DNA from: a virus
Taxonomy: Duplodnaviria; Heunggongvirae; Uroviricota; Caudoviricetes
Virus record (IMG/VR): IMGVR_UViG_2547132281_000014
Coordinates: 1 to 40,471 of that record
Direction: 5' to 3' (one strand)
DNA length: 40,471 nt
The notes below the pieces were generated by a model. It worked only from the letters and a program-made list of their open reading frames with translations. It was not told where the DNA came from and made no database searches. A program made the position numbers and the translations under genes. Positions 3,517 through 8,516 of this stretch are shown piece after piece; within the stretch, counting starts at the first letter, position 1; every line of letters begins with the position of its first letter.

Positions 3517-4043
3517 TTGCGTAACTCCGATAACTCGTTAAAGCGTTCCATAAACATCCCGTAGGCATGGCCCGGTGCCAGTGGAATCACGTTGAACATC
3601 TCTGTTGCCGGGATATCTTCCAGTACAGGCCAGAAAGAGCCATCATCAAGCCCGAGATCGCGGCGTTCGGTTGCCAGCATGATGAGATCGGCATATTTCA
3701 CGGGCGTACTCATAACTGGCGGTAACCCGTATTTCTCACGGATTACGGCGTCTATTTTTTCTTCCATTTGTTTATAGTCAGGAAGAAGGCGTTTCAGTGG
3801 TGCGGGAATGTCCTGGCAATACGCTTCTGTTGCATCATGCATTAACGCTTCAAAAGCAAATTCCTGCGGCACCAGCTGGCTGCAAAGAACCGCATGTTGG
3901 GCGACGCTGTAGAAGTGCGAAAGATGACCGGCAAAGCGACAGATATTTGAAAGGGAAACCGCGATATCGTTAATATCGATGTCGTCTTTATTTATCCTGT
4001 CATAATAAAAATGCTTCCCGGAAAAAGTTTTAATAAATGACAT
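3507..4043 (-). CDS. yfdR: HD-domain phosphohydrolase (5'-deoxynucleotidase-like), YfdR-like (178 aa)
   Basis: Start moved to the ATG at 4043, which is preceded by GGAGAA. HD-superfamily pattern RFAGH...HD(ATEAY). The 178-aa length matches my recollection of K-12 YfdR. Confidence 0.78.
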   Translation of the reverse strand: MSFIKTFSGKHFYYDRINKDDIDINDIAVSLSNICRFAGHLSHFYSVAQHAVLCSQLVPQEFAFEALMHDATEAYCQDIPAPLKRLLPDYKQMEEKIDAVIREKYGLPPVMSTPVKYADLIMLATERRDLGLDDGSFWPVLEDIPATEMFNVIPLAPGHAYGMFMERFNELSELRKCA

Positions 4044-4136
4044 TTTGTTCTCCACGTATATGCGCTGCACCGCGCTGAATTCTGGTAAAAAGAATCCCTC
4101 ACCATCCGGCGATTATTGAGTAAATTACGTTTCCAT

Positions 4137-4158
4137 AAATGCCCCCGCAGGGGCATTT
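4137..4158. terminator. Intergenic 9-bp perfect hairpin (AAATGCCCC-cgca-GGGGCATTT) between the yfdQ-like and yfdR-like genes
   Basis: Perfect inverted repeat read directly in the sequence. No strong U-tract on either strand, so it may be an intra-operon attenuator or RNA-stability element rather than a full terminator. Confidence 0.3.
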
Positions 4159-4170
4159 GCAGTAATGAAA

Positions 4171-4995
4171 TCAGGCGGTGAAAGTACCAATAAAGGTTTC
4201 TACTTTGCTGTCCTTGAATTTCTCAACAAGCAGATCACGAAATTCGTTAGCCATTTCTTCCTGCACCGCCTCCAGCTGAATAATGCGCAGAACCAGTACA
4301 GGACGATCGCCAGTGATAATACTGAGGCGTAATTTAAACGGACGTTCTTTCAGACCTTCAAACGGAACGCATTTAAATTCAAATGCCACTGGCATAATGT
4401 CTTTGGTCTTCGCTTCGACAGACTCCATCAGGGAGCGTTTGCCGCTGAAGTCATTATCTTCAAAATCAGCGGTCTGGTTTGCTTCAATCGTGATTTTACG
4501 GACAGCCGCAGCCGCTTTTGTTGCCTGAATAGCGTCACCATTAGCATCAAAGCCCACAAGATAGTCGGCCCAGTCTTCAATCCATTCTGCTAGTGACTTC
4601 TGGGAGTTACGCTCGCCGTTAACAGACAACAGAGCAGAGAACGGTGCTGTCTTTTTCAGTTTGAGTGTGGCGGTGTTATCTGCGTGACCTGGTTCATCAA
4701 TAGTACCCAGGTTAAGCACACTGACGGCACGCATATTATCAGCATCGATAAAGCAGCGGGTGCCTTCATCTGCAAGATCTTTAGAATAACGGGTAAAGTC
4801 ATCGATGCTGGCAGTGGAAAGCGCACCACGGAAACGGAAGCGATTTAAATTAAATTTTTCCAGATCATGAATGCGGAAATTCTCAGGCAATGCCACAGCA
4901 TCGGCACCAATCTTACTGATAATTTCATTAACACCCTGAGCAGAAATAAGGGCATGGATTTGATTAATTGCGGTTGCGTCTAAGTTCTGAGACAT
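4171..4995 (-). CDS. yfdQ: YfdQ-like (DUF2303-type) phage protein, 274 aa
   Basis: Clean 274-aa ORF preceded by an SD sequence (GAGGA). Length and position match my recollection of CPS-53 yfdQ. Function unknown. Confidence 0.7.
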
Positions 4996-5060
4996 AATAA
5001 GTCCTCACTATATAAAGATATTCAGTGATGAGATAAATAATCAGTTAATTAAAAACGATA

Positions 5061-5423
5061 TTAACGACCTGCTGCGCGGAGTTTTCCGTCAGGTTCACCG
5101 GCAAGAGTCAGTAACTGTCCCTGGTCTTCCTGCAGAATAGTCAGGCGACCACCGCGATTGACATACATCGGCGTTTCGGTGGTGTCTTCTTCGGAAATTT
5201 TCCCGCGGTTAGTCGGGCGAACATATGAGAGTTTGTGTTTGATTTTCACTCGGTTCTCATCAAACGGTTCGATTTCCAGGTTGAGCGAGACCTTACCTTT
5301 GGTTTTCGTGTTCATCACACCGGAAGCGACTTCACTGAGAACTGCGCCGATTTTGGTTTCAAATACGCCGCCGTCCAGCTCCCCGATAAATGCCTGCACA
5401 TCAGTACTGCGTTCGCTAGCCAT
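5061..5423 (-). CDS. yfdP: YfdP-like small phage protein (120 aa)
   Basis: The track ORF (226 aa) is trimmed to the ATG at 5423, which is preceded by GAGGAG. The downstream 120 aa (MASERSTDVQAFIGELDGGVFETK...) look protein-like. The upstream 106 codons are Arg/Pro/Cys-rich nonsense. Confidence 0.65.
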   Translation of the reverse strand: MASERSTDVQAFIGELDGGVFETKIGAVLSEVASGVMNTKTKGKVSLNLEIEPFDENRVKIKHKLSYVRPTNRGKISEEDTTETPMYVNRGGRLTILQEDQGQLLTLAGEPDGKLRAAGR

Positions 5424-5439
5424 TTTGCTGCTCCTCATC

Positions 5440-5760
5440 ATATCGACTCTGCAAGGTCGGTTAGTTTCTCCACAAAACAGAGAAGAACACCTGCGGTGAC
5501 TGCCGCCCGGATGGATTGGGTTATGAGCCCGTCGTCCGGTGATGCTCTTCTCTGTTTTGTAAAAAGGACGGTACCAGCCGGAAGCAAGGGTACAAGCTGG
5601 TACCGCCAAGACTACACACAGCATCAAGTTGTGGTGCCGGGTGCCTCCCGGTGCCTGGCGAAGGTTGCACACCAGGCGGGTGGGTATCCACAGAAGGTCG
5701 ACTGTCAGCCTCAACCTTAACCCGCGTGCGCTGAGCCGCATTCACCACAACGCTAAGGAT
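5440..5760. ncRNA. Candidate structured non-coding element (strand and class unknown)
   Basis: No credible ORF in any frame. Locally GC-rich inside AT-rich accessory DNA. Perfect helices: 15 bp (5472-5486/5546-5560), 10 bp (5569-5578/5596-5605), 5 bp (5637-5641/5647-5651) and 6 bp (5653-5658/5672-5677). Confidence 0.3.
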
Positions 5761-5824
5761 TCTCTCTGGTTGAAAATACTTAGCTGTTATGTGCCTGCTT
5801 TTAGCCACATCAGGCGAGGTGGAC

Positions 5825-5876
5825 CTGGTTATTCCCCAACAACAAGGATTCGGTTAATCTGGTTATCCCCAACAAC
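5825..5876 (+). repeat. Two direct repeats, CTGGTTAT(T)CCCCAACAAC, 34 bp apart, immediately upstream of the 144-aa ORF
   Basis: Copies at 5825-5843 and 5859-5876 differ by a single-T indel. A possible -10 element TAATCT (5855-5860) lies between them. Confidence 0.6.
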
Positions 5877-5891
5877 GCAAAAGGAAAAGAA

Positions 5892-6326
5892 ATGTCCGGT
5901 AATATCTATACGCTGTACAAATCCCACTGTGAAAATGTTGGAAAGTATCGGGGCATTGAAATCAGTGGGGTAGTGTCATCAGTCGAAATAAGCAAAGTTG
6001 AATCAAGGGCAACATTACTTACTCTTTTGGACCTTGTCTTACATGAGCACCGGAAGAAATTCGGCACTCCCTATAATCAGTTGAATGGGAAAAAGGCTCT
6101 GGTTCACCTTATTCTGATGAAGCATCACTGGATGCCAAAACAGATTAATGAGATGAAATTTGATGAACTTCTTCTTTCAATTCAGGATGAACTCACACTT
6201 GATAAAATAAGCGTAACCGCCCAGAAATTTTTAGATTATCGAGACTGGAGAGCACAAATTCATCACTTTGATGATTTTGACGAAAATGAATGGGATCCTA
6301 ATTTGTCTGCACAATATCTAAAGTAA
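5892..6326 (+). CDS. Hypothetical 144-aa protein, oriented against the early-left operon (moron-like)
   Basis: ATG preceded by AAGGA with 6-nt spacing. AT-rich codon usage unlike the phage core. Mostly helical-looking sequence with an acidic C-terminus (HHFDDFDENEWDP). No family recognised. Confidence 0.55.
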   Translation: MSGNIYTLYKSHCENVGKYRGIEISGVVSSVEISKVESRATLLTLLDLVLHEHRKKFGTPYNQLNGKKALVHLILMKHHWMPKQINEMKFDELLLSIQDELTLDKISVTAQKFLDYRDWRAQIHHFDDFDENEWDPNLSAQYLK

Positions 6327-6504
6327 CATCCTGTGATAAAACCGTGATTTCCTGATCCAGTTTTTTTAAGGAGTCTATTGTTTCCTGTCGATAAGACAGC
6401 ACTTCACGAAGCTGGTTTATAGCTGCCAGCTTCTTTGTCATCCACTCATAAATTTCCTCATCTGTGTAGCCAGGCGCGACGATTTTGGGTTCTGTTTTGT
6501 GCAT
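6298..6504 (-). CDS. Hypothetical 68-aa coiled-coil protein, first ORF downstream of pL
   Basis: ATG at 6504 is preceded by GAGGAG. The track start at 6519 is a TTG and is less likely. The 3' end overlaps the convergent 144-aa gene by 29 bp. Confidence 0.5.
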   Translation of the reverse strand: MHKTEPKIVAPGYTDEEIYEWMTKKLAAINQLREVLSYRQETIDSLKKLDQEITVLSQDVTLDIVQTN

Positions 6505-6563
6505 TTCACATCTCCTCAAGTTATCAGTTACTTGTTGATGGGGACCAGATTGTTAAAGAGCTA

Positions 6564-6586
6564 AGCGTCCTGTAGGGCGCTTTTTT
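6564..6586 (+). terminator. Rho-independent terminator, functional orientation on the + strand
   Basis: AGCGTCC-tgta-GGGCGCT followed by TTTTTT. The stem contains a G-U pair on the + strand that becomes a C-A mismatch on the minus strand. The minus strand also lacks a U-tract. Confidence 0.65.
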
Positions 6587-6668
6587 GTTGCTAACGAATC
6601 ATCCTGGACTTCATATGCCCCAGGCGGCTACTTCGTGGGCGTCCTGCCTGTTCGTTGTCGGCAAAATG

Positions 6669-6710
6669 ATATTGCTACTTAAAGTTGCAAAAATCAACTA
6701 CAAAAAGTAG
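6669..6710 (-). promoter_or_regulatory. Putative pL with two operators (OL)
   Basis: Minus strand: TTGATT (6697-6692), 17-bp spacer, CAATAT (6674-6669). Operators CTACTTAAAGTTG (6675-6687) and CTACAAAAAGTAG (6698-6710) are 23 bp centre to centre. This mirrors the pR/OR layout. Confidence 0.6.
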
Positions 6711-7016
6711 AAGTTAAGGGCATAAAAACGCATTTTGAAATTAATTCATTGAATTTACAGGTAAAATATTTTGGGGGCTATGATCAAAAAATTATATTGT
6801 GAAGTTAGCTGAGTTGTAGAACGTGATGGATTGTTTCATTGTGGCTGAGATCAGTATGTGATCTAGTTAATCATCAAGTGGGGAGAAGTCAATCATGAGA
6901 GTATTGTTGAGTTTTTGGAGGCTAAGTGTAAAACGGTAGGGAATTTACTACTCAATGGATTGTGTGATTTAGCCTCGATAGTAAGAAAACTAGGGCAGGT
7001 CATAGTCAAAAACTTA

Positions 7017-7424
7017 TCAAAACATAAATTTGGCGAGACCTAAAATCGCCAAGCCTGTTGCAACAGTCCATGCGATCTGTTTATTTACGGCTGATGAAAT
7101 AGCGCTGTTGACTTCACTTAGGCTAGGTTTTTTTGACAACTTTTCATCTATATCTATTTGTTTTTGAAGGATAACAGCGACATCGCGTCGGGTGTCGGAG
7201 AGAGCGTTTCGCAAATCACGAATGTCAGCTCTCATCTCTGCGAGATTTGTTTTTATATCCTCAACATTCGCTTCTAACTTAGCGACTCGGGCTTCAAGCA
7301 TGTCATCACCTCCGCCATCTCCACCGTGTCTTCTAATTGTGGGAAGTTCACTATTAAATGGTACTACATTATTTTGCGGCGTCGGCATTTTTTTCATCTT
7401 CCGTTTTTGCTGGGAACTTTTCAT
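7017..7424 (-). CDS. Tail-anchored coiled-coil membrane protein (up to 135 aa; start uncertain), last gene of the cI operon
   Basis: Heptad-like segment LEARVAKLEANVEDIKTNLAEMRADIRDLRNAL. Single hydrophobic helix at the extreme C-terminus (IAWTVATGLAILGLAKFMF). Alternative ATGs lie at 7397, 7388 and 7301; the one at 7301 has the best SD, GGAGGT. Confidence 0.55.
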   Translation of the reverse strand: MKSSQQKRKMKKMPTPQNNVVPFNSELPTIRRHGGDGGGDDMLEARVAKLEANVEDIKTNLAEMRADIRDLRNALSDTRRDVAVILQKQIDIDEKLSKKPSLSEVNSAISSAVNKQIAWTVATGLAILGLAKFMF

Positions 7425-7716
7425 TTACCCAGTTCAAAACTGAAAACGCATTTATATGAATTTCATTTCCACAATTGTTGCATATTAGTGAAAAGTAATA
7501 CTGGTTAGCAGTATCAGAATAAATGCTTTTTTCAGTAAAAACATTCACATAACTACCAAGTTTCATAGTACATGGCATGCCCACATTCGCGCTGACTTGA
7601 GGCACAGTCAATCTGTCGTGTCCACATAGTGTACATTTTAGATATATATTCTTTTCTGAGAAATAAGAGACCAACATATCCATGTTAATCTTTTCGAATC
7701 CCTGCTCACTAGCCAT
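7369..7716 (-). CDS. Zinc-ribbon-like 115-aa protein immediately downstream of cI
   Basis: ATG at 7716 is preceded by AAGGG and lies 15 nt after the cI stop. Two CxxC pairs are present (CTLC and CNNC). No family recognised. Confidence 0.6.
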   Translation of the reverse strand: MASEQGFEKINMDMLVSYFSEKNIYLKCTLCGHDRLTVPQVSANVGMPCTMKLGSYVNVFTEKSIYSDTANQYYFSLICNNCGNEIHINAFSVLNWVNEKFPAKTEDEKNADAAK

Positions 7717-7731
7717 TATATGCCCTTAGAA

Positions 7732-8472
7732 CTATAACCGATTGTATTTTATTGACTCATGAATCAACGCCTTGCCCATTACATAAAGCTGATCCTGCGA
7801 TTTTTCATCGATGTACCATTTCTCATAGGCAGGGTTATCCGAAAGAACGGCTAGCTTGTCACCTTGCATTTGAAGACGTTTAACATGAAAAGTCTTACCG
7901 TAAACGAAAGAGTAAATTCCATCAGTCTGGAAGTGACGAACAGAAATGTCGACAAACAGTCGATCTCCGGAAACGAGAGTAGGGGACATACTATCGCCAT
8001 TTACAGTCATAACCTTAATATCATCCTGAGAACGGTTACCGAAAAGAGAACGGGCATGTTCTGTTGTGAACTCAATGGCGTAGAGCACATCAACATAGTC
8101 TGAAAGCATATAGGTTCCAGGTCCTGCGCTAACGCTAAGATCTAAAACTTCTATCCTGTATACGTCGGGTTTTGTTGGATTGGGGATGCTTGCCATTTCC
8201 TTACATCCTTCTCTCTCGCCAACACCATATTCTAAATATGAAGCCGATACCCCCAGAGCCAACGCAAGTTTATTCATGACAGAGGCACGAGGCTTCGCTG
8301 CGCCGATTGTGTATCGCCGCGCCATTTCATATGTAACGCCAACAAGACTTTTGAGTTGGGTGACAGAAATTCCCTTGTTTGTCATTAACTCGTTTAGTCT
8401 CTTGGCGAAATCTGGATACTTCTGTTCTTCTACCATAGGTAGAAGATTACTCACATCACATACGCTCGTCAT
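7732..8472 (-). CDS. CI-like prophage repressor (XRE HTH plus S24/LexA-type autopeptidase domain)
   Basis: N-terminal HTH (FAKRLNELMTNKGISVTQLKSLVGVTYEMARRY). C-terminal GDSMSPTL...K(R)L Ser/Lys dyad pattern. Divergent from cro across operator repeats. The start is uncertain: ATG 8472 is possibly leaderless, and ATG 8436 is the alternative. Confidence 0.88.
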   Translation of the reverse strand: MTSVCDVSNLLPMVEEQKYPDFAKRLNELMTNKGISVTQLKSLVGVTYEMARRYTIGAAKPRASVMNKLALALGVSASYLEYGVGEREGCKEMASIPNPTKPDVYRIEVLDLSVSAGPGTYMLSDYVDVLYAIEFTTEHARSLFGNRSQDDIKVMTVNGDSMSPTLVSGDRLFVDISVRHFQTDGIYSFVYGKTFHVKRLQMQGDKLAVLSDNPAYEKWYIDEKSQDQLYVMGKALIHESIKYNRL

Positions 8473-8474
8473 TT

Positions 8475-8516
8475 CTATTTTAAGTAGTTGCAATTCGCTA
8501 CTTTAAGTAGCATTAT
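8475..8516 (+). promoter_or_regulatory. Putative pR with two operators (OR); probable divergent pRM
   Basis: TTGCAA (8488-8493), 17-bp spacer, CATTAT (8511-8516). Operators CTATTTTAAGTAG (8475-8487) and CTACTTTAAGTAG (8498-8510) are 23 bp apart. On the minus strand, TAAAAT lies just upstream of the cI ATG at 8472. Confidence 0.6.

Follow-up and report, generated by a model that had tools for sequence, protein, structure and literature searches.

A Mobile Two-Gene Module in Lambdoid Prophages: Convergent Genes That May Encode a Lysogen-Expressed Effector and Its Antagonist

Results

Two convergent genes at the start of an early-left operon

The DNA examined here (the window) is a stretch of 40,471 nucleotides (nt), positions 1 to 40,471 of IMG/VR record IMGVR_UViG_2547132281_000014, and it is an SfV/SfIV-like lambdoid prophage integrated next to a tRNA gene at 1369-1441. 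In a slot between a yfdP-like gene and the repressor gene, two open reading frames (ORFs) point toward each other and share 29 nt at their 3' ends (Table 1). The larger one, of 144 amino acids (aa), runs against the early-left (pL) operon, and its 68-aa partner reads with that operon. As described below, the two constitute a mobile two-gene module that recurs in other prophages with a fixed orientation rule. An earlier reading of the sequence, made without database searches and called here the original prediction, had noted a good Shine-Dalgarno sequence and an AT-rich codon usage for the 144-aa ORF. Both observations stand, as an AGGA Shine-Dalgarno sequence precedes the ATG start codon and the GC content of the ORF is 36-41%, compared with 45-59% in the flanks.

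Table 1. Features mapped or predicted around the convergent gene pair. Positions are those of the window.
Feature	Position	Strand	Evidence or remark
Large gene, 144 aa, ECs1072 family, antisense to pL operon	5892-6326	+	ORF; ATG start; AGGA Shine-Dalgarno
Partner gene, 68 aa	6298-6504	-	ORF; GGAG Shine-Dalgarno; PHROG 1744
Repeat copy 1, CTGGTTATTCCCCAACAAC, in conserved left frame of all framed cassettes	5825-5843	+	
Repeat copy 2, CTGGTTATCCCCAACAAC	5859-5876	+	
Left arm of flanking inverted repeat (AATCTGGTTATCCCCAACAAC), holding copy 2	5856-5876	+	PhiR29_1 homology breaks at 5876
Inverted third repeat copy, right arm of flanking inverted repeat	6531-6551	-	27 nt upstream of 68-aa start
Predicted intrinsic terminator, + strand only, in conserved right frame	6563-6588	+	Conserved in all framed cassettes
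Second hairpin inside partner gene, alternative or weaker terminator candidate	6408-6433	+	-15.6 kcal/mol; z = -4; tail UUUGUCAU
Structured pL leader RNA, three helices, 14 pairs, first 69 nt of pL transcript	6590-6658	-	Covariation
oL/pL, two operators matching oR (8475-8510)	6668-6724	-	57-nt inverted match to cI-cro intergenic region
STnc100-like small RNA (sRNA)	5558-5769	-	Rfam RF02076, 43 bits (gathering score 47), E = 1.5e-7, full-length including terminator
cI	7732-8493	-	
cro	starts 8544	+	

No family had been recognized for the 144-aa protein in the original prediction, but it belongs, over its full length, to NCBIfam NF033230 (ECs1072). The match scores 157.1 bits, with residues 4-144 aligned to positions 2-142 of the 142-position profile, and the curated whole-protein cut-off is 70 bits. 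The protein also falls in PHROG 5286. NF033230 is a mere label (a 'hypothetical equivalog'), and the literature found describes neither a function nor a partner nor a context for it. The sole paper that mentions ECs1072 carries it as an entry in a microarray table, with a regulated signal in the O157 Sakai lysogen (PMC2241611). An exhaustive HMMER search yielded 76 representative clusters of the family. Its members are ~145-155 aa long, and the conserved residues are L50, R54, L64, G66, A69, H72 and W134. The ideas that the protein carries a HEPN motif (Rx4-6H) or an HD motif were dropped, since the residues that would form them are not those conserved in the family.

Structure prediction, which had been proposed as a check, gave AlphaFold2 models for both proteins. 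The model of the 144-aa protein is all-helical, with a predicted local distance difference test (pLDDT) score of 94, and predicts a compact, soluble helical bundle; on the fold-search side the check came back empty, with no relatives of this model in PDB or BFVD. The 68-aa model (pLDDT 86) has 14 extended N-terminal residues followed by one long helix spanning residues 15-60. Annotation with Pfam, PADLOC and PHROG yielded no function.

The gene pair is conserved with a fixed orientation

Homologues of the 68-aa protein converge on ECs1072 homologues (25-40% identity) with overlapping 3' ends in ~11 contexts, which span pL, pR and late operons and come from Escherichia, Klebsiella and Xenorhabdus. 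Large-gene homologues at this level of identity are present in loci L138, L139, L141, L142 and L146, and every one of them faces a small convergent, 3'-overlapping ORF. These small ORFs encode homologues of the 68-aa protein: pairwise E-values go as low as 1e-11, and an N-terminal motif, EPxIxAxGxSxEELxxWMxxK, is common to them. The C-terminal half of the partner is unconserved and is largely dictated by the antisense sequence of the large gene. A hidden Markov model made from the partner ORFs revealed a copy not called as a gene in L145 (6.5e-31) and another in L143 (1e-6); the L143 copy lies at a late-operon moron site beside a holin gene. Starting from the large gene, a homologous convergent partner is therefore found in L016, L138, L139, L141, L142, L143/L144, L145 and L146.

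The reverse search gives the same association. An ECs1072 gene converges on each of three partner homologues taken from Xenorhabdus- and Klebsiella-type phages (E-values of 1e-53 to 1e-55; L147 and L148-L152). Here the module is part of the pR operon, with cro on one side and the replication genes on the other. Throughout all contexts, the large gene is oriented against the lytic operon around it, and the partner reads with that operon. This rule holds for pL operons (the window, L141 and L146), pR operons (L148-L152) and a late operon (L143). Wherever it was measured, the 3' overlap of the pair spans 29-194 nt. A Mantel test shows that the identity matrices of the large and small proteins are correlated (r = 0.84, p = 0.0002), partly owing to two close locus pairs. 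Co-conservation in so many contexts and the fixed orientation support the earlier proposal that the two genes function as a pair.

Several further observations concern the neighbors and variants of the module. A SieB gene (PF14163) adjoins it in L145 in the same orientation, and in a Xenorhabdus-type context a phage-encoded CsrA homologue lies directly beside it (L138, 2-169; L147, 3214-3411). In the E. albertii prophage L016, the large protein is only 71% identical to that of the window; the first 48 codons of its partner are 98% identical and the remainder is frameshifted, which places a mosaic junction within the partner gene.

The partner is the first gene of the pL operon

The oL region was located by its 57-nt inverted match with the cI-cro intergenic region. 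The operators within it are CTACTTAAAGTTG (6675-6687) and CTACAAAAAGTAG (6697-6710). By analogy with pR (TTGCAA-17-CATTAT), pL can be read on the - strand as TTGATT-17-CAATAT, with a probable start near 6655. The mapping makes the 68-aa gene the first ORF on the pL transcript, in agreement with the original prediction. The leftward early genes run from the yfdP-like gene (5061-5423) through DUF2303/yfdQ, an HD hydrolase and eaE-like genes toward int.

The interval from oL to the end of the cI operon contains the strongest promoter-like site of the region (TCTACA-18-TATAAT, 10/12, 6820-6791 on the - strand). Two genes downstream of cI, in the rexAB position (7017-7424 and 7369-7716, both on the - strand), encode a 135-aa coiled-coil protein whose C-terminus is hydrophobic (PHROG 3556/4293) and a 115-aa CpXC-like zinc-ribbon protein. 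Together they resemble in architecture the cargo of the PhiR29-type cassette described below, which combines a coiled coil with a zinc ribbon.

The module occupies a framed slot with interchangeable cargo

In a megablast comparison with phages and E. coli genomes, window positions 5000-6659 are common to SfIV, Kati and others. Homology to PhiR29_1 is confined to 5000-5876 and 6545-6658, so that one break coincides with the end of repeat copy 2 and the other lies within the inverted copy. For SfV and mEp460 the matching parts are 5000-5822 and 6593-6659, and Lys8385Vzw matches only at 5000-5609. When the comparison was extended to eight more E. coli prophages and to 80 loci from IMG/VR, at least eight unrelated genes (63-189 aa), all on the + strand, were found in the slot between a common left frame and a common right frame. 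The left frame extends over 5778-5860 (…CCTGGTTATTCCCCAACAACAAGGATTCGGTTAATCTGG…) and the right frame over 6545-6659 (…CCAGATTGTTAAAGAGCKAAGCGTCCTGTAGGGCGCTTTTTTG…), and a + strand gene is present in every related, frame-keeping prophage examined. This cassette is carried by 406 of 5426 complete E. coli genomes, and ~1900 have the flanks. The module as such is present in ~7% of complete E. coli genomes and also in prophages of Shigella, Salmonella, Klebsiella, Yersinia and Xenorhabdus.

The 144-aa gene had been described as a reverse-oriented moron, and the comparison bears this out. It is present or absent among collinear relatives (PhiR29_1, SfV, mEp460 and Lys8385Vzw), its GC content deviates, and a predicted terminator of its own, active on the + strand only, lies downstream. 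Since the frames are conserved around + strand cargo, they belong to the + strand unit and provide it with a shared 5' region and a one-way terminator. Frame conservation thus supports the model of a separate transcription unit, although its promoter is not visible in the sequence.

The alternative cargo, in the slots of L004, L007-L014 and L098-L112 that are homologous to window 5877-6544, includes a coiled-coil plus zinc-ribbon protein of ~165 aa with several alleles. Strain CFT073 has a signal-peptide protein with a weak LprI-like match. Other occupants are membrane proteins of 159-189 aa with two transmembrane segments, with a short Pro-rich leader ORF ahead, and a 167-aa protein. None of the alternative cargo genes has a PADLOC match. 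In SfV (L002), an unannotated 81-aa ORF (3862-4107, + strand) has a similar ribosome-binding context, AAAAGGAAAA. It converges on and overlaps orf33 (98 aa; 4025-4321, - strand), which makes a different convergent pair in the same slot, there without frame or terminator. In uropathogenic E. coli 26-1 (L013) the same 81-aa ORF is present, and a ClpX-type zinc-finger gene (939-1142, - strand) lies convergent to it, ~200 nt downstream.

The repeats belong to the slot and not to the module

The original prediction had reported two near-identical direct repeats ahead of the 144-aa gene. They are present and are not due to chance, given that only 0.02 single matches with three or fewer mismatches are expected per window. 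Copy 1 is invariant in all framed cassettes. Copy 2 and a third, inverted copy on the far side of the cassette are the arms of an inverted repeat that flanks the cargo. In the window, the arms form a duplex of -26 kcal/mol, compared with -11.4 ± 2.9 kcal/mol for shuffled sequences. The inner arm sequences are specific to the cassette type (CFT073, AATCTGGATGACT/AGTCATCCAGATT; L107, GTAACCCTC/GAGGGTTAC; PhiR29, AATCTGGATATCC…), yet all 22 distinct arm combinations stay complementary, with duplexes of -19 to -34 kcal/mol versus about -12 ± 3 kcal/mol when shuffled.

These data bear on the earlier proposal that the repeats are repressor or activator sites around a regulated promoter whose -10 element is TAATCT (5855-5860). 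The repeats are real and nonrandom, and the invariance of copy 1 is what would be expected of a protein site or a promoter element. However, TAATCT and its best -35 element, TTCCCC, match only 6/12 consensus positions, and the third copy is inverted and lies beyond the cargo. Moreover, arms that differ by cassette type while remaining complementary argue for base pairing or for cassette-end repeats and against a sequence-specific operator. We therefore consider the operator layout improbable. Copy 1 is better described as part of the frame, and copy 2 together with the inverted copy as a flanking inverted repeat, which might form a long-range RNA stem (in the + strand mRNA or the pL transcript) or might mark the cassette ends. 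A tally by eye of G·U versus A·C combinations in the arms runs 4:1 toward the pL strand, too small a number to assign such a stem to either strand.

The inverted repeat is absent around distant module homologues, and for this reason we assign it to the slot and rejected it as a feature of the module. L015 is an exception in that its large-gene homologue is still flanked by a related motif (3960-3985 and 4540-4585), with CTGGATATCCACAGCAA upstream and the inverted form plus TTTAAAGAGC downstream. The L015 homologue belongs to another leftward operon, one that contains an Exonuc_VIII gene. The idea of an invertible segment was rejected because the orientation does not vary among the 80 framed loci and no recombinase gene is nearby. 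Pairing of the neighboring sRNA with the repeat motif in the 5' untranslated regions of both genes is no better than for shuffled sequences.

Predicted promoter and terminators of the + strand unit

No σ70-like site with a match of at least 8/12 was found within 300 nt upstream of the 144-aa gene, and the TAATCT element is accordingly a weak candidate. The hairpin at 6563-6582 plus a run of six U residues folds with -11.5 kcal/mol on the + strand, whereas the - strand version has -7.5 kcal/mol and lacks a U-tract. This agrees with the earlier description of a one-way terminator (6564-6586) just before pL, from which it is ~70 nt away. It had also been called the only convincing terminator of the unit, and this needs qualification, as the second + strand hairpin within the partner gene is a further candidate.

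A structured leader RNA and an sRNA flank the cassette

The first part of the pL transcript is predicted to fold into a structured leader. In the alignment, 91% of the cells are paired and 9 of the 14 pairs show compensatory changes; none of 500 shuffles is as good, and slid controls reach at most 42%. The structure is conserved across all cassette types, including those of SfV, mEp460, L141, L145 and L146. It has no match in Rfam and occurs as a single copy, with no second, putR-like copy within the window. No N-like gene was noticed in the window, although no specific search was made. From these observations we speculate that the leader is a cis-acting element, either put-like for antitermination or a leader of another kind, that helps pL transcription pass the sRNA terminator.

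Along the pL direction, the STnc100-like sRNA comes directly after the cassette and before the yfdP-like gene. It ends in a strong intrinsic terminator of its own (5569-5605), with a 3' end like that of DicF. STnc100 itself is known as an sRNA encoded by prophages, and a preprint groups it with the Hfq-bound sRNA PasD (bioRxiv 10.64898/2026.05.13.724894). Long ORFs over this GC-rich region (window 5424-5973; L001, 3062-3974; L007-L013, ~68-379) are probably spurious coding-sequence calls on non-coding RNA. Such calls include a 226-aa ORF at 5061-5741, ORFs of 161, 114 and 95 aa, SfIV_34 and SfIV_35, and the pseudogenes that PGAP labels 'frameshifted hypothetical protein'. The SfV annotation of the same region contains only the 120-aa yfdP-like gene.

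Discussion

A proposed effector gene paired with an antagonist from the lytic operon

The most satisfactory interpretation of the locus is that a lysogen-expressed effector is paired with an antagonist made from the lytic operon, and that the two travel as a mobile accessory module, here in an exchange slot downstream of pL. We give this interpretation a probability of about 0.45. Genes antisense to lytic operons are a recognized signature of lysogen-expressed accessory loci (PMC7067206). This placement, together with the microarray signal of ECs1072 (PMC2241611), suggests that the large protein is made in the lysogen, presumably from a + strand promoter. In this phage lineage, its transcript would be halted by the one-way terminator before the pL start. 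The partner is always sense to the lytic operon and is therefore likely to be made only when that operon fires, upon induction or infection. The large protein would then be a lysogen-phase effector, most plausibly in exclusion or abortive infection, and the small protein its cognate antagonist. Transcription from pL would turn the module off twice, through production of the antagonist and through convergent transcription and antisense RNA over the effector gene. Such a double switch-off would let the prophage's own lytic cycle escape. The timing of expression, the antagonism between the two proteins and the biological function of the pair are what we infer from the conserved arrangement.

Several results weigh against this interpretation. 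Neither protein matches any PADLOC-DB v2 defense model, and the Pfam search of the 144-aa protein gave no match, SieB (PF14163) included. As noted above, the 300 nt upstream of the large gene hold no recognizable σ70-like promoter, and two close locus pairs contribute to the Mantel correlation. In addition, the 55%-identical large-gene homologue of L015 has no partner, and in L016 (1070-1312) the partner is frameshifted after residue 48. These two cases indicate that the partner is not always needed.

A bolder version of the interpretation can be put forward only tentatively and is itself doubtful. It holds that ECs1072 and its partner constitute an unrecognized two-component prophage system, in which a lysogen-expressed effector with a new fold blocks superinfecting phages or kills infected cells, a cognate antagonist wired to whichever lytic operon surrounds the module gives self-immunity, convergent transcription acts as the switch, and SfV-type prophages supply a reusable slot.

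Alternative explanations

The two roles could be reversed. The small pL protein would then be an early lytic effector, involved in host takeover or kil-like, and the lysogen-made ECs1072 protein would neutralize its leakage as a 'safety catch.' The co-conservation and orientation data fit this arrangement equally well, and the partner is the very first pL ORF in the window. Single-helix small proteins are also common among phage early host inhibitors. We nevertheless consider reversed roles unlikely. Loss of the partner in L015 and its frameshift in E. albertii, with the large gene intact, fit the loss of an antidote less well, and they do not fit the loss of essential cargo either. Furthermore, half of the partner is unconserved sequence that the antisense gene largely sets, and the slot otherwise holds + strand cargo genes.

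Another explanation is that the module is a lysis-lysogeny device, in which convergent transcription against pL, acting through transcriptional interference or antisense RNA, stabilizes lysogeny and the proteins modulate a repressor or antirepressor. The module lies next to the immunity region in most contexts, the + strand terminator is directly ahead of the pL start, and OOP/cII and the face-to-face promoters of phage 186 provide precedents. However, the module is also found at the late-operon moron site of L143, far from the immunity region, unrelated cargo genes fill the same slot, and many related phages (e.g., Lys8385Vzw) have no cassette at all. The module is therefore not a core component of the switch, and a primary role of this kind seems rather improbable.

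A convergent toxin-antitoxin-like pair had also been proposed for the locus. The classical type II layout of adjacent, co-directional genes in one operon is contradicted by genes that are convergent and 3'-overlapping in all contexts. An RNA-based system (type I or ToxIN-like type III, with the repeats as antitoxin RNA) is very improbable and largely refuted by the comparative data, since the 34-nt period of the repeats ahead of a ~150-aa gene and the convergent overlapping transcripts are offset by repeats that cover only 18-19 nt of each 34-nt unit, are part of the slot frame, also precede unrelated genes and are absent from distant module contexts, by the lack of a terminator between repeats and gene and of any ToxN or Abi match, and by a large protein that is not a small hydrophobic type I toxin. 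Type III in particular was rejected because it calls for tandem full-length repeats of ~34-45 nt, a terminator and an endoribonuclease of the ToxN/AbiQ family.

Implications

If the effector-antagonist interpretation is correct and the module is a defense system with self-immunity, a new family is added to such systems, and gene orientation alone becomes a general way to find more of them. The rule of arrangement, by which the effector gene opposes a lytic operon that the partner gene follows, is simple and open to test. The framed slot and the covarying leader RNA bear on how lambdoid phages that lack N organize and read through their early-left operon.

Comparison with known systems

The closest functional precedent is SieB/Esc/sas of P22 and lambda, where self-immunity and an antisense RNA accompany superinfection exclusion (PMC12197685, PMC7067206). 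Both cases would involve a lysogen-expressed accessory gene in the pL region, with lytic escape through a second product plus antisense RNA. SieB is a membrane protein, in contrast to the 144-aa protein, which the model predicts as soluble and helical and which has no sequence or Pfam relation to SieB. Likewise, Esc is an internal translation product of sieB, whereas the partner described here is a separate convergent gene.

A second comparison is with BstA, a defense gene by the repressor locus of prophage BTP1 whose location and expression signature have been described (PMC7067206). The two systems would share a gene in the immunity neighborhood, expression in the lysogen and a built-in escape for the resident prophage. 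In 2021, Owen et al. reportedly traced the self-immunity of BstA to aba. That determinant is a DNA element inside the gene and not a protein; moreover, BstA is much larger than the 144-aa protein and shows no homology to it.

The module also resembles the Hendrix-type morons of lambdoid phages, which are autonomous insertions of promoter, gene and terminator; it shares with them an inserted gene with deviant GC content, its own predicted terminator and opposite orientation that is present or absent among close relatives. It departs from them in having a second gene on the other strand that is part of the host operon's transcript, and in the reusable frame (a shared 5' region, a flanking inverted repeat and a shared terminator) around interchangeable cargo. 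Finally, the OOP and cII transcripts of lambda are convergent, overlap at their 3' ends and are mutually antisense (PMC7067206). The same is true of the units described here, but OOP is a 77-nt non-coding RNA, whereas both partners of this module encode conserved proteins. What is new is a conserved convergent pair drawn from two uncharacterized families, a prophage accessory module with a probable logic of self-immunity.

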